64,000 bases of DNA from Chloroflexota bacterium (GTDB taxonomy: Bacteria > Chloroflexota > Dehalococcoidia > GIF9 > JBFMDU01), in contig JBFMDU010000021.1 of the NCBI GenBank assembly GCA_040753815.1, forward strand, positions 172,856 to 236,855, written 5' to 3'. Position numbers and translations under genes: made by a program. This document shows positions 10,252 to 62,132 of the stretch, piece after piece. Under the pieces are notes generated by a model. The model did not search any database and was not told the DNA's origin. It worked only from the letters and a program-made list of their open reading frames with translations. Position 1 is the first letter of the stretch. Each line of letters starts with the position of its first letter.

Positions 10252-11460
10252 CTACTTGCGGACAAAGACTGCCAGGCCGATGATGGACAGGACAGCTAAA
10301 GCGGAACTGAAGGCGAAGGGGGCGGCGGGGGTGAAGGTCTGCCAGAGCCAGCCGGCGATGACTGAGGCGGGGAGGAGACCGATGCCGAGGGCGGCGTAGT
10401 AGATGCCGTAGGCGGTGCCGCGGCGCTTGGATGGGACAAGGTCGGCGACAAAAGCACGGGCGACGCCTTCGGTGAGGGCGTAGTAAAGGCCCCAGGCGGC
10501 AAACAACAGCCAGACATGCCAGTGCGCCGTAGCGGCGGTGAAGCCGAGACGGACGGCGGCGAAGACCAGCCAGCCGATGATGATGACGCCTTTGCGGCCG
10601 AGTTTGTCGGAAAGGACGCCGAAGGGCACCGAGAGTCCGGCATAGACGGCATTGAAAAGAATAAGCATGAGCATGATGGTAAGAGTGGTGTTCTGGAGGT
10701 CCTGCGCCCGCAGGACAAGGAAGGCATCGCTGGAATTACCCAGGGTGAAGAGGAACATGACGCTGATGAAGGTCCAGAACTTCCGGCCAAGGCCGGTACC
10801 GGCAGTAACGGCGGTGGGAGCAGGGGATGACGGGACCGGTAAGGTCGGGTCCTCCCGCCTTTTCTCTTTGACGAAGATAAACATGCACAGGGCCAGGACG
10901 GCCGGGATAACGCCAATGACGACGAGCATCTGGTAGGTGGAGCGCTCGAGGAGCAGGCTGTTTTGCTGGAGGAGGAAGATGATCAGGGCGGCGCCGGTGA
11001 TGCCGAGCATGGCGCCTCCGGTGTCCATGGCGCGGTGGAAGCCGAAGCCCTTGCCGCGCTCGTGCTTTTCCAGCGAATCGGCCACCAGGGCATCACGCGG
11101 GGCGGAGCGAATGCCTTTGCCGATGCGGTCAGTGAAGCGGACGCCGAGCACCAACCCCCAGGACGTGGCAATGTACATGAGCGGCTTCATGACAGTGGAC
11201 AGGGTATAGCCGGAGAAGGCCAGGAGCTTGCGACGCCCGATTTTGTCGCTGAGCCAGCCGGAGCCAATGCGCAGAAAGGAAGCGGTGCTTTCGGCGACGC
11301 CTTCGACCAGGCCGATAATGGTCGGCGCCGCGCCGAGGACGTTGGCCAGGAAAAGGGGGAGGAGGGTGAAAATCATCTCACTGCTCATGTCATTGAGCAG
11401 GCTGACCAGCCCGAGGAAGAAGACATTAGCGGCGATGCCGAAGATGCGCTGGCGTGTCAT
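10252..11460 (-). CDS. MFS transporter
   Basis: About 12 TM helices, GWLSDKIGRR and GVLSDKLGRK motif A, DRIGKGIRSAPRDAL; ATG at 11460 with AGGGGG SD. Confidence 0.95.
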   Translation of the reverse strand: MTRQRIFGIAANVFFLGLVSLLNDMSSEMIFTLLPLFLANVLGAAPTIIGLVEGVAESTASFLRIGSGWLSDKIGRRKLLAFSGYTLSTVMKPLMYIATSWGLVLGVRFTDRIGKGIRSAPRDALVADSLEKHERGKGFGFHRAMDTGGAMLGITGAALIIFLLQQNSLLLERSTYQMLVVIGVIPAVLALCMFIFVKEKRREDPTLPVPSSPAPTAVTAGTGLGRKFWTFISVMFLFTLGNSSDAFLVLRAQDLQNTTLTIMLMLILFNAVYAGLSVPFGVLSDKLGRKGVIIIGWLVFAAVRLGFTAATAHWHVWLLFAAWGLYYALTEGVARAFVADLVPSKRRGTAYGIYYAALGIGLLPASVIAGWLWQTFTPAAPFAFSSALAVLSIIGLAVFVRK

Positions 11461-11487
11461 GAATGTCCCCCTGTGTGTTGAACGGAG

Positions 11488-11516
11488 ACAATACGGTAAG
11501 AGAGCGGCGATGTCAA
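11488..11516 (-). promoter_or_regulatory. Promoter of the MFS gene
   Basis: TTGACA-17 nt-TATTGT, ~27 nt upstream of the ATG. Confidence 0.7.
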
Positions 11517-11535
11517 GAAGGCAGGGCACCCACCC

Positions 11536-11563
11536 AGATTTCTCGCTGGCGCTCGAAATGACA
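11536..11563 (+). repeat. REP-like element (copy C) AGATTTCTCGCTGGCGCTCGAAATGACA
   Basis: Same GATT.CTCG...CTCG.AATGACA frame as 10143-10176. Confidence 0.65.
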
Positions 11564-11571
11564 TAGCGTAT

Positions 11572-11604
11572 AAATAATGAGAAAGCCGCCGTACGGCGGC
11601 TTTC
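11572..11604 (-). terminator. Intrinsic terminator closing the minus-strand non-coding unit
   Basis: GAAAGCCGCC-GTAC-GGCGGCTTTC (11581-11604) then TCATTATTT on the minus strand. Confidence 0.8.
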
Positions 11605-11853
11605 CCTTAACTACCGATTATTTAATTTCGGTTCAGATTACCTGCTCGTCCTCAGCCCTCTTACGGGATTATACCCGAATCAGCCTTTCTCCCTTTCCGG
11701 GAGCAACCGGCTCATTTATCTCGCACGGGCCAAGATACGAGTTCCGGTCGGCCCCGTCTCACCGACGGGGCTCTCTGAATCCACCTGGAGTATACGGTAC
11801 ACGGTCTGTGTGCACCACCTCCTTTCGCCCCGTTTTTTCACCTCCCCACCTCA
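11575..11853 (-). ncRNA. Putative stand-alone structured ncRNA (~280 nt), family not recognised
   Basis: Own promoter and terminator, no credible ORF, at least five hairpins and a long-range closing helix (UUCAGA/UCUGAA). Confidence 0.65.
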
Positions 11854-11859
11854 CGCTAT

Positions 11860-11888
11860 AAGTTACCACACCCCGCCTGATATGTCAA
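11860..11888 (-). promoter_or_regulatory. Promoter of the putative ncRNA
   Basis: TTGACA-17 nt-TAACTT with TG extension. Confidence 0.7.
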
Positions 11889-12039
11889 TAGTCATCGTAA
11901 AACCACAAGCCATGGTGGTCAGGGTCTTTATCGTCACAATATGCATGGTCTCTGCACTATTATGGCCCGGACCGATAAGAGAATCGAAAACAGTTGCGGC
12001 CTCTTCAGTATCCAGGCGACGAGTTAGGCTTTTTATGGT

Positions 12040-12058
12040 AGAACATATGTGCTATATT
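12040..12058 (+). promoter_or_regulatory. LexA (SOS) box overlapping the extended -10 of the terminase operon
   Basis: aGAAC-ATAT-GTGCt has one mismatch to GAAC-N4-GTTC, the box reported for Dehalococcoides LexA; it overlaps TG-C-TATATT. Confidence 0.65.
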
Positions 12059-12075
12059 CGGACAGAGGAGGGGCG

Positions 12076-12249
12076 ATGAGACTGCTTAAGATAGCGCTGG
12101 ACAGTGGCCGGCTCGACCTGGCGGCGCACGTCCTGGTTTACGGTCTGGTGATGGCGCATCGCCGTACTTATCGGAAAAGTAATGGCCACAGAAAAGGGCC
12201 CGAAGAGGCGAGGCCGGAAGAGCGAAGCCTTCTACGGCCGCGCACTTGA
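12076..12249 (+). CDS. Small hypothetical protein (57 aa), first gene of the terminase operon
   Basis: GAGGAGG SD and ATG at 12076; amphipathic MRLLKIALDSGRLDLAAHVLVYGLV. Confidence 0.6.
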   Translation: MRLLKIALDSGRLDLAAHVLVYGLVMAHRRTYRKSNGHRKGPEEARPEERSLLRPRT

Positions 12250-12526
12250 TGAATCGGAAAAACTGAAACTCGAGGAAGCACGCCGGGTGGAAGGGCTTGA
12301 TGAGGAAATCGCCGTCCTGCGGGTGAAACTGCGCGAGCTAATCGAGTCCCAGCCGGAAAAAGTCGAGCTATGCCTCACGGCCGCTAACACCATCGCACGG
12401 CTGGTGAGGACACGCTACAACATCTCCAGGGAGCAGAAGAAGTCACTCAAAGAGGCTATCACCAGGGTGCTCACCGAGATTGCGATTCCGGCCGGGGTGA
12501 GCGTGACCAAAGCACTTATTAAATGA
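12182..12526 (+). CDS. Probable terminase small subunit-like protein
   Basis: Basic N-terminus, AFYGRALDE (HGFY-like), helical body; ATGA overlap with the TerL start. Confidence 0.6.
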   Translation: MATEKGPKRRGRKSEAFYGRALDESEKLKLEEARRVEGLDEEIAVLRVKLRELIESQPEKVELCLTAANTIARLVRTRYNISREQKKSLKEAITRVLTEIAIPAGVSVTKALIK

Positions 12527-13857
12527 AGCTTAGGCCGTACCAACTGGAAATAGTGCGGGCGGTAGCCCGGAGCGTCCTGGACAAGCGCGGTACCGCCTTC
12601 ACCGTCGAGATCGCCCGCCAGGGCGGTAAGAACGAGATTTCGGCGCATCTTGAAGTGCTTCTGCTGACGATGTTCATGGTTAAAGGCGGAAGCTCGGTAA
12701 AGTGCTCGCCAACCTTCAAGCCGCAGACTGTTATCTCGATATCGCGCCTGAAACAGCGCCTGGACGACTTCGGCTTCGACGGCATCTGGCAGTCGGAACA
12801 GGGCTACATCATCCGCCTGGGCAATGCCCGCCAGATATTCCTGTCGGCCGAGGAATCGGCCTCAGTCGTCGGCCACACCGCCGACATCCTGCTGGAAATC
12901 GACGAGGCCCAGGACGTAGCCAAGGATAAGTACACGCGGGACTTTCGCCCCATGGCTAGCGCATCCAACGCCACCACCGTCATGTACGGCACGACCTGGG
13001 ACGACCGGACGCTCCTTGAGGAGACCAAACAGGCGAATCTTGAGCTTGAGCGCAAGAACGGCATCAAACGGCACTTCTCTTTTGACTGGCAGGAAGTTGC
13101 CAGATATAACCCGGCCTACGGAGCGTTCGTTGAGACCGAGCGCCAGCGTCTGGGAGAGAATCACCCGCTTTTCCTTACTCAGTACGCCTTGAAGCCCGTC
13201 CGCGGCGGCGGAGGCTTCCTTAACTGCGCCCAGCTAGCCCAGCTTGTCGGAAGCCATCCGCGCCAGGCCCGCCCGTCCAATGGCGCAATCTATGTAGCAG
13301 GCATCGACATCGCCGGTGAGGCCGAGACAAACGAAATAACATCAGGCAGGGACGCCACCGTCATCACCATCGCTAGGGTACAGTCAGGGCAGGCCGGTCT
13401 GGCCGCGGAGGTTGTTGAGCACTACGCCTGGACCGGCAGGAAGCATCCGGAGCTTTACCAGCAGATGGTCGATATCCTCAAGACGTGGAATTGCCGGCAC
13501 ATCCTGGTCGACGCCACGGGCATCGGCGAGCCGGTGGCGTCATTTTTACGTAAGGCGTTAGGCTCCAGGGTTGAGTCGTTTGTTTTTACACAGCAGTCCA
13601 AGAGTGAGCTCGGGTTCGAGTTCTTAGCGGCCGTTAATTCCGGACGTCTCAAGCTGTACCAGCCGGACGGTTCAAAAGAGTACCAGGAATTGATGTTCGA
13701 GCTTGAGCGGGCGCGCTCAGTTTATCGACCGAACCAGACGCTTAACTTTTTCGTTGAGCCGTCAGACGGCCATGATGACTATCTGATGAGCCTGGCTCTG
13801 GCAGTAAAAGCGGCAGAATCATGGGTCCCGAGGCGTGCCTCGGGTGTGGAAGCCTGA
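12523..13857 (+). CDS. Phage terminase large subunit (ATPase plus RNase H-like nuclease)
   Basis: LRPYQ Q-motif, ARQGGKN Walker A, LLEIDEAQ Walker B, YGT coupling motif; nuclease acidic residues in GIDIA, VDATGIG and HDDYLMSLALA. Confidence 0.92.
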   Translation: MKLRPYQLEIVRAVARSVLDKRGTAFTVEIARQGGKNEISAHLEVLLLTMFMVKGGSSVKCSPTFKPQTVISISRLKQRLDDFGFDGIWQSEQGYIIRLGNARQIFLSAEESASVVGHTADILLEIDEAQDVAKDKYTRDFRPMASASNATTVMYGTTWDDRTLLEETKQANLELERKNGIKRHFSFDWQEVARYNPAYGAFVETERQRLGENHPLFLTQYALKPVRGGGGFLNCAQLAQLVGSHPRQARPSNGAIYVAGIDIAGEAETNEITSGRDATVITIARVQSGQAGLAAEVVEHYAWTGRKHPELYQQMVDILKTWNCRHILVDATGIGEPVASFLRKALGSRVESFVFTQQSKSELGFEFLAAVNSGRLKLYQPDGSKEYQELMFELERARSVYRPNQTLNFFVEPSDGHDDYLMSLALAVKAAESWVPRRASGVEA

Positions 13858-13888
13858 AGAGGGCCGGTACCTACCGGCCCTCTTAATT
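13857..13888. terminator. Bidirectional hairpin between convergent terL and tubulin-like genes
   Basis: AAGAGGGCCGGTA-CC-TACCGGCCCTCTT inverted repeat. Confidence 0.75.
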
Positions 13889-13890
13889 AA

Positions 13891-15066
13891 CTACATAAGG
13901 GTCGGGAGTTGTTTGCCGATATCGTCGAGGTCTTTAAGCTGGGTCTGGGTCTCTTTGGCGCGCTGTTTCTGGGTAGCGACGATGGTGCCGGCCCGCTCGT
14001 AGTATTCGCGGATGGCCTGGACATTGGCAAGCTGTGAGAGGATGACGGTGACATCGATGGAGCTCCGCTCGCCGGGGAAATCGCCACCGCGGATGATAGC
14101 GCCGTCGGTCAGCTCGCGTAGGTAATCACCGAGTCCTTTGACGATGTCAATGGTCATGTCCTTGCCGGGGGCGGCGAGGAGGTACATGGCTTTGCCAGCA
14201 TCACGCGGGTTGCAGGTTATGGAAAGCTCGCTGATGGCGGCATCCATGGTCTGAACGCCCTTGAGGGTCTCGTCTGTCTTGGCGCGGAACTGTCGGGTGG
14301 AGCGCCATGGGAGGCGCAGAGTCGGCACATCACTGCGGCCGACACCGATGGCCGTCCAGCCCTCAAGCGTCTGCATGATATCGCCAGCATCCACTACTTT
14401 GGCGCCGACATGCTTTATCTTGGTCACCTCGCCGGCGCAGAGTAAGTCATAGAACGGCTCGGCAATTTGCTTGTTAATCTTGTCCAGGTTGTTGGCCAGG
14501 CTGGCATCTTTACGGACGTAGCGCTGGTTGTCGGCGAGGAAGACGGCATCGGCGACCTGTTTGATGCTCTTGAGACAGGTGGCGGCGTTGTAAACGGTGC
14601 GGACTTCGGTAGCTTGCTCATGTTCGAAGGGGAGGACGCAGAGAGCATAGAGCGGCTTGCCAACATAGCGGTCTTTAATCATCTGAGCGATGACAGAGAT
14701 GGACCCGGAACCGGTGCCGCCGCCGGCGCCGGCAATCAGAAGGAAGGAGTGGGTCTCATAGAAGCGTGGGGCGGCACGGATGGCATCGACAACTTTATCT
14801 CCATCCTCGCGGGCAAGCTCGGCGCCGACTTCGTTGATTTTGCCGACCCCATGCCCGCCAGTCTTGCGGGCGCCGATAAGGATGCGGTGCATGTAGTCAG
14901 ATTGAATGTAGGTAAGGCCGGTGAGGTCAGTCTTATCGCTGTTGACGGCGTAAGCGCCGGTGAGAATGGTGACGTTGCGTTCGGCTTTAGCCTGGCGGGC
15001 CATCCGGGCTAACTGGTCAGCAATACGACAGCCGCATTGACCCAACCCGATTACGAGTAACTTCAT
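13891..15066 (-). CDS. Tubulin/FtsZ-superfamily GTPase, CetZ-like
   Basis: IGLGQCGCRIAD, GHGVG, GGGTGSG, VLPF..E, ADNQ, VVDAGDIMQTL in place of the FtsZ NxDFAD T7 loop. Confidence 0.88.
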   Translation of the reverse strand: MKLLVIGLGQCGCRIADQLARMARQAKAERNVTILTGAYAVNSDKTDLTGLTYIQSDYMHRILIGARKTGGHGVGKINEVGAELAREDGDKVVDAIRAAPRFYETHSFLLIAGAGGGTGSGSISVIAQMIKDRYVGKPLYALCVLPFEHEQATEVRTVYNAATCLKSIKQVADAVFLADNQRYVRKDASLANNLDKINKQIAEPFYDLLCAGEVTKIKHVGAKVVDAGDIMQTLEGWTAIGVGRSDVPTLRLPWRSTRQFRAKTDETLKGVQTMDAAISELSITCNPRDAGKAMYLLAAPGKDMTIDIVKGLGDYLRELTDGAIIRGGDFPGERSSIDVTVILSQLANVQAIREYYERAGTIVATQKQRAKETQTQLKDLDDIGKQLPTLM

Positions 15067-53434: not shown

Positions 53435-56400
53435 ATGAATCTATCTAAACCTGTCCGGGCATTTTTGGCAGTCGGCTTGGTAATTACCGTAGCGTTCGGG
53501 CTCATGCCGTCGCCGGTGCCTGTCCCTGTGTCAGCCGTAGTCGGTCTGCTTGAGTGGGGTACCCTGGAGACCCCGGGGAAAGACCCGTTCACAGTGATTT
53601 CTCCGTCCGAAGCTAATCAGTTTGCGCTCTATACCGACGTTGATGGCAATATTACCATTTATCTAACCGATATTCCCAACAGCCGTCTGCTTAAATCAAC
53701 CGACGGTGGATCAAGCTGGCTGACTACAGGGGATCCTCTAACAACAGTTGGGGCTGTACTTCCTGCCTACATGGTCGCCGTAGCTCCGGATGATAGTGAT
53801 ATTGTTGTCGCTGTCACTAATAACCGGAAACGGGTCTATTACTCGATAGATGGAGGTGTAAACTGGGCGACTGCCAGACTTGAAGACTTGGTGCCGCCGC
53901 TTGGCGCGAATGAACAGATTTCCGGAATTGAAATATCATCGAACTACCTGGCTGCCGGCGGATATGCTCGTGACATAGTTATTTGTACTCGGGACAGTAC
54001 CCCGGGGCCGGGCAGAATCCTGCTTCTACAGCTTCTTCCTCTCGGTATCGGTGCATGGAAAGACCAGCTGGCGCCGGCTCAGGGTTTCAGCCGCCTCAGA
54101 CTTTCGCCGAATTACGCCAGTGACCAGGCTCTGGTTGCAGTCGGCTCCAATGCAACTGACACTTTTCTGAACATCGGTATCCGTGATTTCTCTGCTAATA
54201 CATCCAGGTGGAATGCAGCGGTGACGTCTGGATGGCCGGTTGACATCACCGGTGTGGCTGTAGGGCCGAATTGGACGCAGTTGATAACTTCGGACATTGT
54301 GCTTCCAAATGATTACTACGGGCAGAATGATTATAGCCGGCGTGCGTACATCTGTTTTGATGACAATAATGCGACTGGACAGGCTAACGTTTATTATGTG
54401 GACAACTATACAGTGTACAAACTCAACTTTCCGGAACCGAGGCCATATTCGCTAGCAGGCAACGGGAGTTATTGGAGCATCGAATTAATGTGCAGCCCCG
54501 TAAGTGGGGCTTCGCTTGAGGGCACAGTACCAGTATATTACTGCGCCCGTCCATCACCTTCAGGCGGTACTGTCTGGACGGTGCCGTATAAATATCCATC
54601 CGGTGGCTTCGGCTCAACTCAGACCCGTGCTGTAGTCAGATGGACATCGGATGGAAGCAAGGTCTACGCTGGGAGTTTCTCGACGCCTGCTATCGATAGT
54701 GCTGCGGCATGGTACGTTGCGGCAAACTGGACGACCGGGACTGCTAACGATGAATCGGCTTTGTCCATCAGTATTGATGACGGCCTTACATGGAACCAGG
54801 TGGGCTACATTGATACCACCATTAGCGGTCTAAACGATTTTGCGGTATCTCCTGACGGGGGTTCGGCGTATGTTACCAGTTGGAACCTTGGCATCAATTT
54901 AGAGAGCATCTGGCGGACGAAAAGTGTGCCGCTGGGTAATGTCTGGGAGCGGGTGCGATGTACCTCTAGCACTATCAACCAGCCGATTGTCAGGTTGGTT
55001 CCTAAATTACCGGATGGTTCGATTGTATTTTGGGCAGATGTTGGCGGTAGGAGAGTGCAGAGGTCTCAGGATGGTGGGCAGACGTGGCAGGACACCCAGT
55101 CAAGGTTGAACGTTCAAGATATGGCGCTGGTGAATGCTTACAGTGCCTACGTGCTCCAGAACGATGGAAGGATTAGTAAAGGTAGTATCGGTGCTTATGG
55201 GGGCATGTGGGTCTGGGGTTCCCCAGTCTTTACGGGTATCACCACTGGCCATACTATTTCAGTGCAGGGCGATACCGTTGTTGTCGGCGGCTCACTGGGA
55301 AGCCGGGTGACTTACTCCCTGGATGGAGGCAGTAGTTTCCAGGTTACTCCGGAATTACCTACCGTAGGTAATCAGCACGTAGCCATTGATCCGGCCTTCC
55401 GGGAGACGCGGTGTATTTACGTGGCTGATGACAGTCCGGGTGGTCAACTCTATCGGTGGTATATAGGTGTTAGTGGGGATTGGAACGCCGAAGTTATATC
55501 AGACCGAGTGGGTCCACGTTTTGGCATTGTTGTTACCTCTGAAGCTACACAATTCGGTCCAGCGCTGTATTGCCCAATGTCTCTCATCGGTGGCTGGGTG
55601 GTTGAGAGGACACTGTATCCGAGAGTGCCTATGGCTAAAGAAGCCCGTCAGTCGTGGGACTATCTGACCAGTGGCCTCCCAGTCGGGGCAGCTTTCGCTT
55701 CAGAGCCTTCGGCATTGAAGATTTCCAGTACTTCACCGAATGTGGTTATTTGGGCTGTTGATACATCGGCCGCCAACCGGTTGCTGGCATTTAATGATTC
55801 AATGACTCTGGACTCTACGGTTATCATTGCTCCGAAGCTTGATGAGAAAACAGATACGGCTGTCATCCCGATTGCTCCTAATGGGTACAATGTTCCGTTT
55901 GGTTTGGGATGGGATACAGTCAGGACATCGTCTGAGTACGAAGCGCAGATATCGGCTACACCGGACTTTTCGGACGTGGTAGCTTCAGCACCCTGGGCTC
56001 CTCCGGGTCCGCCATTCTTCGTGCCGGCAAACCCCGAGCGTCCCAGCTGGCTAATTGGAACTGGGACATTAATGTCAGGGAAAACATATTATGCTCGTGT
56101 TCGTGTCCGGCGTGTATCTTCAGGACAGGAGATACGGACTGTGTGGTCCCCGGTGCAGAAGATGACGCTCCAACCACGGCTTCCCGTAGGCGCCAATTAT
56201 GCTGGGCCACGCGCGGTGTTTCCAGCAGTCGGTGCTCTGGATCAGAGGGTTGAAGAAGCGGCCTTCAGCTGGTCATCGGTGTCGGACGCTACCGAATATC
56301 ATTTTGTCCTTGGCAAAGAGCCATCATTCGACGAGCCGTTGGTAAACAGCCCGGTGAACGGCACTGTTTTCACCTACACCGGAACTCTTGAATACGGTAC

Positions 56401-56659
56401 CACATACTTCTGGCAGGTATGGGCGACCAAGCCAGCGCCTAGCGAGAAGAGTCCTGTTTTCATATTTACCACGGTTTACCAGCCGGAGCCCAAGCAGGAA
56501 GCGGAAATCATCATCATACAACCGGATCCGACTCCATTAGTAGTAGTCATGCCGGTGATTGACGAAGGTGTGCCGCCTTGGGGATGGGTGTTGATTGGAG
56601 TTAGTGGTTTGCTTCTAGTTACGGTGATTGTCGCGGTCGTCTTTGCTGGGCGACATTGA
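53435..56659 (+). CDS. Large exported BNR/Asp-box beta-propeller plus Fn3-like protein with C-terminal TM anchor (S-layer-type)
   Basis: Signal peptide; S.DGG..W boxes (STDGGSSW, SIDGGVNW, SIDDGLTW, SQDGGQTW, SLDGGSSF); TYYARVR and TYFWQV; Pro-rich linker and TM helix. Confidence 0.88.
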   Translation: MNLSKPVRAFLAVGLVITVAFGLMPSPVPVPVSAVVGLLEWGTLETPGKDPFTVISPSEANQFALYTDVDGNITIYLTDIPNSRLLKSTDGGSSWLTTGDPLTTVGAVLPAYMVAVAPDDSDIVVAVTNNRKRVYYSIDGGVNWATARLEDLVPPLGANEQISGIEISSNYLAAGGYARDIVICTRDSTPGPGRILLLQLLPLGIGAWKDQLAPAQGFSRLRLSPNYASDQALVAVGSNATDTFLNIGIRDFSANTSRWNAAVTSGWPVDITGVAVGPNWTQLITSDIVLPNDYYGQNDYSRRAYICFDDNNATGQANVYYVDNYTVYKLNFPEPRPYSLAGNGSYWSIELMCSPVSGASLEGTVPVYYCARPSPSGGTVWTVPYKYPSGGFGSTQTRAVVRWTSDGSKVYAGSFSTPAIDSAAAWYVAANWTTGTANDESALSISIDDGLTWNQVGYIDTTISGLNDFAVSPDGGSAYVTSWNLGINLESIWRTKSVPLGNVWERVRCTSSTINQPIVRLVPKLPDGSIVFWADVGGRRVQRSQDGGQTWQDTQSRLNVQDMALVNAYSAYVLQNDGRISKGSIGAYGGMWVWGSPVFTGITTGHTISVQGDTVVVGGSLGSRVTYSLDGGSSFQVTPELPTVGNQHVAIDPAFRETRCIYVADDSPGGQLYRWYIGVSGDWNAEVISDRVGPRFGIVVTSEATQFGPALYCPMSLIGGWVVERTLYPRVPMAKEARQSWDYLTSGLPVGAAFASEPSALKISSTSPNVVIWAVDTSAANRLLAFNDSMTLDSTVIIAPKLDEKTDTAVIPIAPNGYNVPFGLGWDTVRTSSEYEAQISATPDFSDVVASAPWAPPGPPFFVPANPERPSWLIGTGTLMSGKTYYARVRVRRVSSGQEIRTVWSPVQKMTLQPRLPVGANYAGPRAVFPAVGALDQRVEEAAFSWSSVSDATEYHFVLGKEPSFDEPLVNSPVNGTVFTYTGTLEYGTTYFWQVWATKPAPSEKSPVFIFTTVYQPEPKQEAEIIIIQPDPTPLVVVMPVIDEGVPPWGWVLIGVSGLLLVTVIVAVVFAGRH

Positions 56660-59348: not shown

Positions 59349-60098
59349 CTATTCTCCAAGAGGCCTGCCGTAGTCAATTTTTGTGAGGCAAAGGCCCTTT
59401 GCCGGCGCCGTTGGCCCGGCTTGGCCGGGTCTCTTAGCCTCCATTATCTGACTGAAATCGTTAAACGATATGTTACCCAGGCCGAGTCTAATCAGCAAGC
59501 CAACAGTATTGCGCACCTGGTGAGGCAGGAAAGAATTAGCGACGATTTTAAAGTCGACCATGTCTCCCACCCGTTCTGCTCGCGCCTCGAAAACCGTTCG
59601 TGCCGGGTCGCGGTCTTCTTCCCATGAAGTGGCGAATGAAGAGAAGTCGTGCCGGCCTGTAAGAAGGCTGCAAGCCTCGTTCATCGCTTCCACGTTCAGT
59701 TCCCGGGCTACGAAGTAAGCGAGGTCCAGCGCCAGTGGTGAGCGGCATGGTCGGTTAAGGATGGAGTAGTTGTACTGCCGGCTGACCGCGTCACCCCGGA
59801 CGCTGAAGCTTTCCGGTATTCGGTGGGCCGATAGAACTGCGATATCGTCGGGCAGGTGAGCGTTTAGAGCGCGCTGGATAACCAGAATACTTAACCGGGA
59901 ATCGGTCCAGAAGCTCACAACCTGGCCTCTAGCATGCACCCCGGCATCAGTCCGGCTGGCGGCGATTACCCGTCGCTGTTCGCCGGTTGTCTGGCGTATG
60001 GCCTCTTCCAGCTCTCTCTGAATCGTTGGCAAGCCCTCCTGCCACTCGAATCCGTGGTAACGCTTGCCATTGTACTCTACTACCAGAGCGATTTTCAC
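59349..60098 (-). CDS. truA: tRNA pseudouridine(38-40) synthase
   Basis: SRTDAGVHA.GQ, G.HDFSSF, FL..QVR, TAPA.GL.L. Confidence 0.97.
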   Translation of the reverse strand: MKIALVVEYNGKRYHGFEWQEGLPTIQRELEEAIRQTTGEQRRVIAASRTDAGVHARGQVVSFWTDSRLSILVIQRALNAHLPDDIAVLSAHRIPESFSVRGDAVSRQYNYSILNRPCRSPLALDLAYFVARELNVEAMNEACSLLTGRHDFSSFATSWEEDRDPARTVFEARAERVGDMVDFKIVANSFLPHQVRNTVGLLIRLGLGNISFNDFSQIMEAKRPGQAGPTAPAKGLCLTKIDYGRPLGE

Positions 60099-61505: not shown

Positions 61506-62132
61506 CTACCGTGAATAGTACTCTACGATCATCTGCTCGTTGTAGATGGGCTCAACATCGGCGCGGGTTGGCAGAGTCGTAACCTTACCGATGAGGTTCT
61601 CCCGGTCAAGAGTAAGCCAGTTCGGGATGACCTTGTCCCTAATTTTGTCCTTAAGCACCGCGAAGTACTTGTTTTTAGTGCTTCCCGTGCGCCATTGGAT
61701 GGTGTCACCCTCGGCTACAAGGTATGAGGGGGCATTGGTCTTGTGACCATTGGTATAAATATGGCCGTGCCGCACCAACTGCCTGGCCTGGGCGCGAGAG
61801 TCCCCGAAACCAAGGCGGAAAACTACGTTGTCCAGGCGCCTTTCGAGGAGTACCAGCAGGTTCTCACCGGTGATACCCGGGAGATGGGCTGCTTCCTCGA
61901 AAGTTTTGCGGAACTGCCGTTCGAAGACGCCATAGGAAAAGCGAGTCTTCTGTTTCTCGCGGAGTTGCATACCACGGTCAGAAACCCTGCGGCGCCGGTT
62001 GTTGCCGTGCTGACCTGGCGGTATATTACGTTTATCAATGGTGCATTTGGTTATGCACTTATCGCCTTTGAGCATCAGCTTTTCGCCGATGCGGCGGCAC
62101 AAACGGCATTTGGCCTCAATAGTCCTTGCCAT
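61506..62132 (-). CDS. rpsD: 30S ribosomal protein S4
   Basis: CRLCRR, PPGQHG, LERRLDNVV, ARQLV.HGH, VEYYSR. Confidence 0.99.
   Translation of the reverse strand: MARTIEAKCRLCRRIGEKLMLKGDKCITKCTIDKRNIPPGQHGNNRRRRVSDRGMQLREKQKTRFSYGVFERQFRKTFEEAAHLPGITGENLLVLLERRLDNVVFRLGFGDSRAQARQLVRHGHIYTNGHKTNAPSYLVAEGDTIQWRTGSTKNKYFAVLKDKIRDKVIPNWLTLDRENLIGKVTTLPTRADVEPIYNEQMIVEYYSR

Follow-up and report, generated by a model that had tools for sequence, protein, structure and literature searches.

What does a DNA-packaging operon do in a bacterial chromosome when no portal, capsid or integrase gene accompanies it? The question is raised by a stretch of 64,000 nucleotides (the window: positions 172,856 to 236,855 of contig JBFMDU010000021.1, assembly GCA_040753815.1) from a member of the class Dehalococcoidia, phylum Chloroflexota, whose genome (G000) comprises 1.985 Mb in 23 contigs and is 89.65% complete. 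Window positions 12039-13884 hold a compact unit: an operator-like box at the -10 element, a gene for a 57-residue protein (orf57), a gene for a 114-residue protein (orf114), a gene for a large terminase subunit (TerL) and a hairpin. An initial annotation, made from the letters alone, had described this unit as an orphan, host-maintained and DNA damage-inducible packaging motor, possibly part of a dispersed gene transfer agent (GTA). The operon was recovered as described, down to the coordinates of its open reading frames (ORFs), the ATGA coupling of TerL and its intact motifs, and no portal, capsid or tyrosine integrase gene was found in the window. The term orphan is apt only for some relatives; in G000 itself, a cluster of head genes behind a promoter of the same layout lies on a separate contig, C7. 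The reading favoured here, with middling confidence, is that a head and packaging system of phage origin and GTA-like character has become fixed in the chromosome, in split form and under LexA control, and that the window carries its packaging half.

A large terminase with two small partner genes

The 444-residue product of the third gene is a large terminase whose ATPase and nuclease motifs are intact. Its sequence matches Pfam Terminase_6C (1.3e-8) as well as PHROG TerL families; the Pfam domain, which is the C-terminal one and the sole one detected, was found in 25 of 45 members of the TerL family. The AlphaFold model (pLDDT 94.6) returned the large terminases of HK97, D6E, Sf6 and T4 as its top Foldseek matches in the PDB (1e-17 to 2e-15, across both domains), and every match listed as far as rank 23 is a large terminase. 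Taken singly, the ATPase domain can be aligned with its counterparts in P74-26 and T4, and the nuclease domain matches those of G20c, P74-26 and RB49. TerL shares with the solved HK97, D6E, Sf6 and T4 enzymes the common two-domain fold of an ATPase and an RNase H-like nuclease, catalytic motifs included, whereas its sequence identity to them is merely 12-15%, and the family profile retrieved no PDB sequence at E <= 0.01. Across 18 orthologues, the stretches RQGGKNE (Walker A), LLEIDE(A/S)Q (Walker B) and YGTTWD are invariant, as are the nuclease residues D262, D330 and D418/D419; the names Walker A, Walker B and catalytic glutamate are used here for the ATPase motifs in keeping with common practice.

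The Walker A motif (RQGGKN; residues 31-37, window 12613-12633) has an asparagine, invariant in the 18 orthologues, at the site usually taken by serine or threonine, ending in GKN where solved terminases usually have GK[ST]; K36 is conserved in at least 90% of the 45 family members. Genome-wide terminase family searches revealed no second terminase in G000, TerL being the only one found. Contig C10 (34073-34156) retains a 28-residue remnant of a TerL C terminus, 64% identical to residues 410-437 and with stop codons on both sides; this fragment is a decayed second TerL copy and shows the fate of a copy that is not under selection.

Directly upstream lies orf114, translationally coupled to TerL; the gene is conserved, and the gene order kept, in 72 distinct loci. 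Its model is all-helical with a monomer pLDDT of only 60, which was judged too uncertain for a fold search. The predicted complex of orf114 with TerL gave an ipSAE of 0.72, against 0.00 for the best control; of 80 solved complexes 58 attain this mark, as do 2 of 110 mismatched pairs. Runs agreed in at least 73% of contacts with a partner pLDDT of at least 57, and the C-terminal helix of orf114 (residues 81-111) was placed on the N-domain of TerL. The model supports, rather than shows, binding of orf114 to the TerL N-domain via this helix, and the small terminase (TerS) label of the initial annotation rests on gene position and on this predicted interface.

The 57-residue ORF is evidently a real gene: homologues occur in 63 distinct loci, mobile relatives included, and over the N-terminal 25 codons the codon-position entropy is 0.81/0.49/1.49 (61 distinct segments), third-position variation being dominant. 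Its product consists of an N-terminal LLKxALxxxxYDLAAHxLVYGL domain and a basic tail; Pfam, PHROG and NCBIfam gave no match, and a PDB profile search gave nothing usable. One might speculate that orf57 supplies the DNA-binding part of the small terminase. The two small genes overlap by ~20-70 nt, with orf114 in the +1 frame in 15 of 15 loci checked by hand, and K/R-rich stretches are encoded in both frames of the overlap (window 12182-12249). A frameshift fusion, uniting a DNA-binding head with an oligomerization and TerL-binding body, is conceivable; shared ancestry would explain the constant frame equally well.

The operon is conserved across the order and under purifying selection

TerL is present in 49 of the 61 genomes of the order and in 24 of its 28 genera, at 59-84% identity and mostly as a single open frame; intact open frames occur in five families of the order. 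In the class as a whole, 172 of 251 sampled genomes have it (one positive genome, G291, is unpublished), with some families at 0/13 and 0/7. The protein falls into 454 representative clusters at E <= 1e-30, and a search of genome contigs gave 360 related stretches, the best 80 of which are all titled Dehalococcoidia or Chloroflexota, with one Anaerolineae.

Conservation extends to the surroundings. Of 81 loci, 51 have a convergent gene for a CetZ-like tubulin behind the trio of genes (type A), 6 have a portal gene immediately behind it (type B), and 24 are cut by contig ends or differ. Over 46 loci, TerL and CetZ-like distances co-vary (Mantel r 0.71; 0 of 2000 permutations as high). Of 17 informative close pairs, 16 give TerL a ratio of non-synonymous to synonymous divergence (dN/dS) of 0.02-0.15 and one gives 0.49 at a dS of 0.03; TerL dN/dS is about 0.1 at dS up to 1.3, and in close pairs the ratio is 0-0.25 for orf114 and 0.008-0.13 for the CetZ-like gene. 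With a G+C content of 0.58, similar to that of its flanks, the operon is also host-like in composition, as had been noted at the outset. Its spread, synteny and low dN/dS support the view, taken in the initial annotation, that the terminase operon is host-maintained.

Head genes at a second locus under the same promoter

No head genes adjoin TerL in the window. They were found on contig C7, where an intact cluster running from a helix-turn-helix (HTH) gene, hth123, through portal and capsid to an adaptor-like gene (Table 1) is followed by the host genes TauE and FtsK and preceded by the same box and promoter layout as the terminase operon. Portal and capsid family matches in G000 are confined to this contig, with no further family of either kind found elsewhere in the genome. 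The initial annotation had proposed looking for free-standing portal and capsid genes preceded by this box, and that check came out positive. The arrangement recurs in relatives: 18 of 23 hth-portal clusters have the box, and their head promoters, GACAAAAT..CCTTG..TAGAAC-N4-GTGCTA-ATAT, repeat the layout of the terminase operon. All 28 portal-positive genomes of the order are TerL-positive and the portal occurs in 0 of the 12 TerL-negative genomes; G049 is TerL-negative, yet has capsid matches at 39-44% identity. Because the head cluster of G000 has the same promoter, the simplest partner for TerL is the portal of its own genome.

A possible mechanism follows this layout. In undamaged cells, LexA would sit on both operators (window 12039-12054 and C7:103122-103137); DNA damage would lead to LexA self-cleavage and transcription of both loci. 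Procapsids would assemble on the portal, the small proteins would bind DNA and recruit TerL through the C-terminal helix of orf114, and TerL would cut the DNA and pump it into the heads. LexA binding, co-induction, particle formation and the nature of the packaged DNA are the parts of this scheme that we infer. No tyrosine integrase, recognizable replication module, tail or lysis genes were found at the terminase and head loci of G000, and the product would therefore be a host-controlled, GTA-like and possibly tail-less particle, not a virus. The system appears GTA-like in layout and control: phage-derived structural genes are fixed in the chromosome, inherited largely vertically and under purifying selection, with mobile copies nested in the TerL tree; the complete head-and-tail particle and the release mechanism of a GTA were not found in G000.

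Several observations weigh against a split particle-forming system. The two loci lie on different contigs of an incomplete genome. Portal and capsid were found in 28 and 26 of the 61 genomes of the order, respectively, against 49 for TerL. In G001 (90% complete), from the same genus, the operon is present and no portal or capsid was found; G006 (99%), G016 (97%) and G034 (96%) keep the operon with no portal or capsid of this family; and the closed genome G026 keeps just the box, hth and a portal stub. Neither G016 nor G026 has a PF05065 capsid, and TerL is intact in both. In pairs that include head-less genomes, TerL dN/dS is 0.07-0.12, no different from that of head-bearing pairs; the operon thus appears to be under selection whether or not a genome has heads of its own. 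No tail, tape-measure, baseplate, lysis or release family was recognized in the C7 cluster of G000; the tail-like 661-residue protein and small structural proteins of relatives (G003, L076) have no homologue in this genome, and its own p279, p83, p155 and p156 matched nothing in the fetched loci of relatives. For orf114, no match was obtained in Pfam, PHROG, NCBIfam or the PDB, profile search of the latter included; in the Atlas it falls into hypothetical Chloroflexota clusters, the other leads, to T5_Terminase_small and DUF1804, all being below 0.9. Resident TerL copies are not monophyletic in a quick tree, in which mobile-type, integrase-linked copies form two clades, one of them nested among the residents; the low dN/dS that the initial annotation had suggested testing for was borne out. 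Finally, in the 46-locus comparison TerL diverges faster than the adjacent CetZ-like gene at short range, and its dS is often the higher of the two (for example, 1.10 versus 0.12), which suggests that TerL alleles may have been exchanged or replaced by recombination with mobile or other copies.

Some of these points bear on a different role, in which the terminase is kept without heads of its own, either as an SOS-induced decoy or pirate terminase acting on the procapsids of mobile elements or as a damage-processing nuclease-translocase. We regard such a role as less likely than the favoured reading, yet as a serious rival to it. The surplus of TerL over portal and capsid fits it, also within genera g6 and g13 (TerL in 10/10 genomes, portal in 5/10) and in the capsid-less G026 and G016, but absences in draft genomes are no proof. 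The undiminished constraint in head-less genomes fits it too, but may reflect recent head loss. Two further points in its favour are that related mobile elements whose portals match are plentiful (570 of 600 matched viral-contig stretches encode a relative) and that TerL evolves faster than its CetZ-like neighbour. On the other side, the operon has no linked gene for a defence system or for repair, and G000 has its intact head cluster under the same promoter. A decoy or pirate role would amount to phage interference, or to host-driven transduction via borrowed capsids, that is, reverse piracy by the host. Retention of the terminase without heads was unexpected and makes the role of an orphan terminase directly testable. 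A proposal that spans both situations, and which we likewise put forward only tentatively, is that the chromosomal, SOS-switched terminase is selected for its own sake: with heads it would drive the first GTA-like particle of the Chloroflexota, and without heads it may load or block mobile-element procapsids.

The box is a conserved operator of the LexA type

In 46 of 59 distinct orthologous promoters (chance, ~2% per locus), a box that departs from GAAC-N4-GTTC by one mismatch or none lies no more than 80 nt ahead of orf57, at a median of -31 from the ATG and always between a TTG-type -35 and a TAATAT-type -10. Its forms include GAAC-GTGC (30 of the 46), GAAC-GTAC (9) and GTAC-GTTC (4). In G000 it abuts TATATT with a 2-nt overlap, so the GAAC-N4-GTGC box of the initial annotation is indeed at the promoter, although not over the -10 as described there, and GTGCTAATAT/GTGCTATAAT recurs at the terminase and head promoters of relatives alike. 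By its recurrence, the box is evidently a conserved operator.

LexA is encoded in G000 (TIGR00498, 161 bits, over the cut-off; C9:8008-8604) and was found in 52 of the 61 relatives. A box of the same type (at most one mismatch) is present in 27 of 30 lexA upstream regions, in the forms GTAC/GAAC-N4-GTTY/GTAC and often in tandem (GTACACTTGTTT-G-TAGAACAAATGTAC); the lexA promoter of G000 has TAGAACAAATGTAC on the minus strand. A home-made expectation-maximization motif search over 29 lexA upstream regions recovered GTAC-ACTT-GTTY, a motif that is dominated by relatedness and was not used as a scoring matrix. GAAC-N4-GTTC is known as the LexA box of Dehalococcoides. The box at the terminase promoter is of the same type as the autoregulatory lexA boxes of its lineage, as had been predicted, and we infer that it is a LexA operator.

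That the operator is real but bound by another repressor, such as the HTH protein of the head locus or a phage-type repressor, is unlikely. The departure of the commonest form, GAAC-N4-GTGC, from a palindrome would be a sign of another protein were it not that the conserved G completes the TGnTAnnnT of the overlapping extended -10, which explains it. A second conserved element, GACAAAAT..CCTTG, accompanies the box, and hth123 weakly matches a late transcriptional activator family; set against these, the half-sites are shared with the lexA promoters, and other 16-mer sites in the genome precede a helicase-nuclease gene pair and what is presumably a radical-SAM repair-like gene. Moreover, the box is missing from G045 (98% complete) and G047 (92%), two better-quality genomes in which TerL is present and no LexA was found. 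LexA was likewise not found in G042 and G054, where the box is present; these are <90% complete, so only G045 and G047 are informative.

The terminase promoter of G047 (C20; L083/L173) reads TTGACA-17-TATACT, with a different palindrome, TTAGTAAGCAATGCTTATACTAA, in the position of the box. LexA was found in neither of the two genomes of this genus (0/2); the operator seems to have been swapped there.

The 16-mer TAGAAC-N4-GTNCTA occurs at only four sites in the genome: at the terminase operon, C7:103122, C14:61547 and C21:59839. The C14 site (61547-61562; L167:5548-5563) is a perfect palindrome, TAGAACACGTGTTCTA, between a gene for a 995-residue ResIII-helicase/endonuclease and a gene for a 222-residue protein, p222. 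The C-terminal 80 residues of p222 are 40% identical to an ORF that lies between integrase and orf57 in the viral contigs L186 and L188, and also to one in L066, and the protein weakly matches a PHROG replication initiator (8.6e-4). It may represent a third scattered remnant of this element family, again with the same box. The C21 site (59824-59839) reads TAGAACGATTGTACTA on the minus strand and has a TTGACA upstream of it and a gene for 394 residues behind it; it shares its contig with the window, which begins ~113 kb further downstream. Judging by the start of its product, this gene may belong to a radical-SAM DNA modification or repair family.

The split form derives from contiguous, integrase-bearing elements

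Relatives are also common on viral contigs, where 570 of 600 matched stretches encode one. In the best 80 of these contigs, TerL is followed directly by the portal in 68, and an integrase homologue is present in 14. The order common among the contiguous forms is integrase homologue, orf57, orf114, TerL, portal, scaffold, capsid, adaptor, small proteins, sometimes hth, and a 661-residue protein with weak matches to tail proteins; such forms are small (~12-22 kb). The box precedes orf114 in 7 of 59 viral-contig promoters versus 46 of 59 chromosomal ones, and is present in 4 of 5 contiguous forms with hth ahead of the portal. In G003, G022 and G025, the terminase and head loci lie 10-27 kb apart with host genes between them. 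No tyrosine integrase was found near either locus in G000, G003, G007 or G022, serine recombinases not having been searched for; the two tyrosine integrases of G000 are on contigs C8 and C23 only. The split chromosomal form derives from contiguous integrase-bearing elements, and the forms can be arranged as a domestication series: (1) contiguous, with integrase and no box; (2) contiguous, with hth and a box before the portal; and (3) split, with LexA-type boxes on both halves.

Such an origin leaves two further explanations to be weighed, both of which we consider improbable. The operon could be an inert relic of a defective prophage of this small integrase-bearing family, conserved through recent descent or gene conversion: integrase-linked contiguous relatives exist (14/80), some class members carry 2-5 copies, a decayed TerL fragment persists on C10 and mobile copies are nested among the resident TerLs. 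An inert copy, however, would have to account for frames that are open in five families with dN/dS of about 0.1 at dS up to 1.3, for the CetZ-like neighbour in 51 of 81 loci, for promoter and operator in 46 of 59, and for the lack of a nearby integrase. Alternatively, the two loci could still belong to an element that is mobile or depends on a helper, for instance a capsid-forming satellite, and whose remaining genes are unassembled, as 89.65% completeness in 23 contigs, a make-up of head, adaptor and terminase without tail (as in the islands discussed below) and the boxed p222 on C14, with its likeness to an early-region protein of mobile relatives and, weakly, to a replication initiator, might suggest; but ordinary host genes flank both loci (MFS and CetZ-like at the terminase, TauE and FtsK on C7), the only two tyrosine recombinases found are on other contigs, and the split layout with intervening host genes recurs in G003, G022 and G025.

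Comparison with known packaging systems

The closest parallel in layout and control is the GTA of Rhodobacter capsulatus (RcGTA), in which phage-derived terminase, portal, capsid and adaptor genes are likewise fixed in the host chromosome, largely vertical and under purifying selection, spread over more than one locus, free of integrase and replication genes and under the control of host regulators; LexA affects RcGTA production. The present system differs in that terminase and head loci are separate, each with its own LexA-type operator, and in that G000 yielded no genes for tail, lysis or maturation. Unlike in RcGTA, moreover, head genes are missing in many genomes that keep the terminase, and close mobile relatives still circulate in the class.

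Operon I of the staphylococcal pathogenicity islands (SaPIs) is likewise a packaging operon with a small terminase under the direct control of a LexA box, which couples it to the SOS response, as are the helper phages. SaPIs are mobile islands that carry an integrase and terS, lack genes for TerL, portal and capsid, and rely on parts from helper phages; here, by contrast, the operon includes TerL, its locus is not mobile and the host owns the head genes. Capsid-forming phage-inducible chromosomal islands (cf-PICIs) resemble the present system in having their own TerS, TerL, portal, capsid and head-tail adaptor and no tail genes. They are integrative, replicate and depend on a helper, whereas the loci described here have no integrase or att site nearby, are split between contigs and are syntenic across the order. 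A PICI or cf-PICI would be expected to have an integrase, att sites, a replication module and helper-dependent derepression; here no tyrosine integrase was found near either locus, host genes flank both, and integrases occur only in the contiguous relatives.

To our knowledge, only a handful of GTA lineages are known, and the portion of the literature covered by our search describes no GTA for Chloroflexota and no conserved terminase in Dehalococcoidia. Little is known of how genes are exchanged among members of this class, which grow slowly, are mostly uncultured, have small genomes and matter in subsurface and dehalogenating communities. Class-wide, damage-inducible packaging, if true, would offer a concrete and testable route of gene exchange in the Dehalococcoidia.

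Promoter, terminator and neighbouring genes

The three co-oriented ORFs have as neighbours a divergent gene for an MFS transporter (10252-11529, minus strand) on one side and the convergent CetZ-like gene (13891-15066, minus strand) on the other; the features of both loci are listed in Table 1.

Table 1. Features of the terminase operon (window positions) and of the head-gene locus (contig C7) in G000
Feature	Position	Strand	Description
Upstream promoter element	12016..12035	+	GCGACG, then -35-like T-rich hexamer 17 nt before the -10; putative role
Putative LexA-type operator, TAGAACATATGTGCTA	12039..12054	+	GAAC-N4-GTGC core GAACATATGTGC at 12041-12052
Extended -10 (TGC-TATATT)	12050..12058	+	TG at 12050-12051, TATATT at 12053-12058; overlaps 3' half of operator
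orf57	12076..12249	+	ATG start, GGAGG 6 nt upstream; first gene of operon; overlaps orf114, which is in +1 frame
orf114	12182..12526	+	All-helical small protein in TerS position; predicted TerL-binding subunit
TerL	12523..13857	+	444 residues; ATGA stop/start overlap with orf114 at 12523-12526
12-bp GC-rich hairpin	13857..13884	.	Occupies 33-nt gap between convergent TerL and CetZ-like genes
Boxed operator	C7:103122-103137		Ahead of hth123 and head cluster
hth123	C7 cluster, first gene		HTH; weak match to late transcriptional activator family
Portal	C7 cluster		PF05133 3.6e-20; PHROG 64 1e-32
Scaffold-like gene	C7 cluster, after portal		Coiled-coil
HK97-type capsid	C7 cluster, after scaffold		PHROG 212 1e-60
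Several small ORFs, then SU10-adaptor-like gene	C7 cluster, after capsid		Adaptor match weak

The operon promoter is not listed by a generic sigma-70 consensus scan because its -35 is weak. In upstream sequences anchored at 59 orthologous loci, the upstream element takes the form GCGACA-N~8-CTTGTT, and the GACAAAAT..CCTTG element is found ahead of the box at the head-gene promoters of relatives as well. At terminase and head promoters, this GCGACA/GACAAAAT-N-CCTTG element lies 6-8 nt upstream of the box (for example, in L143, L145, L149, L153 and L161) and is sometimes a dyad, GACAA..TTGTC. It could be the site of another regulator such as hth123.

The hairpin behind TerL has a folding energy of -24 kcal/mol (z -5.0), and 0 of 200 shuffles fold equally well. 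It is missing from the listing of a consensus terminator scan because it has no U-tract, and is likely to be a bidirectional terminator of that kind; the terminator proposed in the initial annotation thus stands as a strong 12-bp hairpin and not as a canonical, U-tract-bearing one. Rfam and tRNA scans of the window were both empty. The 550-nt intergenic stretch 11530-12040 upstream of the operon, read earlier as a divergent non-coding RNA, has a strong hairpin at 11579-11606 and no Rfam match; it is conserved in a same-genus genome, with similar frame translations.

The CetZ-like neighbour matches Pfam Tubulin (7.6e-33) and CetZ_C (2e-20), in a bacterium. G000 has three CetZ-like tubulin paralogues in addition to a true FtsZ (C9:3215-4159), and homologues occur in 57 of the 61 genomes of the order, usually two or three per genome. 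An archaeal origin of the sequence, prompted by this CetZ-type gene, was rejected, given that related records are from Dehalococcoidia or Chloroflexota and that the genome has LexA and a true FtsZ. Also rejected was the idea that the CetZ-like gene marks a recurrent attachment site: there is no integrase nearby, and in the contiguous forms TerL lies within the element, not at its end. In the locus pairs L100/L063, L032/L047 and L023/L031, TerL is 2-9 times as diverged at synonymous sites as the CetZ-like gene and, for one of the pairs, as orf114.

A 1171-residue neighbour of the C7 head cluster was considered as a tail protein and rejected, as the Atlas groups it with Sortilin-Vps10/BNR-type surface proteins of Chloroflexota. 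L136:940-4455 (C7:98939-102454) and window 53435-56659 encode paralogous proteins of ~1100 residues with a G+C content of 0.66-0.67, and a protein of this kind adjoins the head cluster in genomes of f1, f2, f3 and f4.

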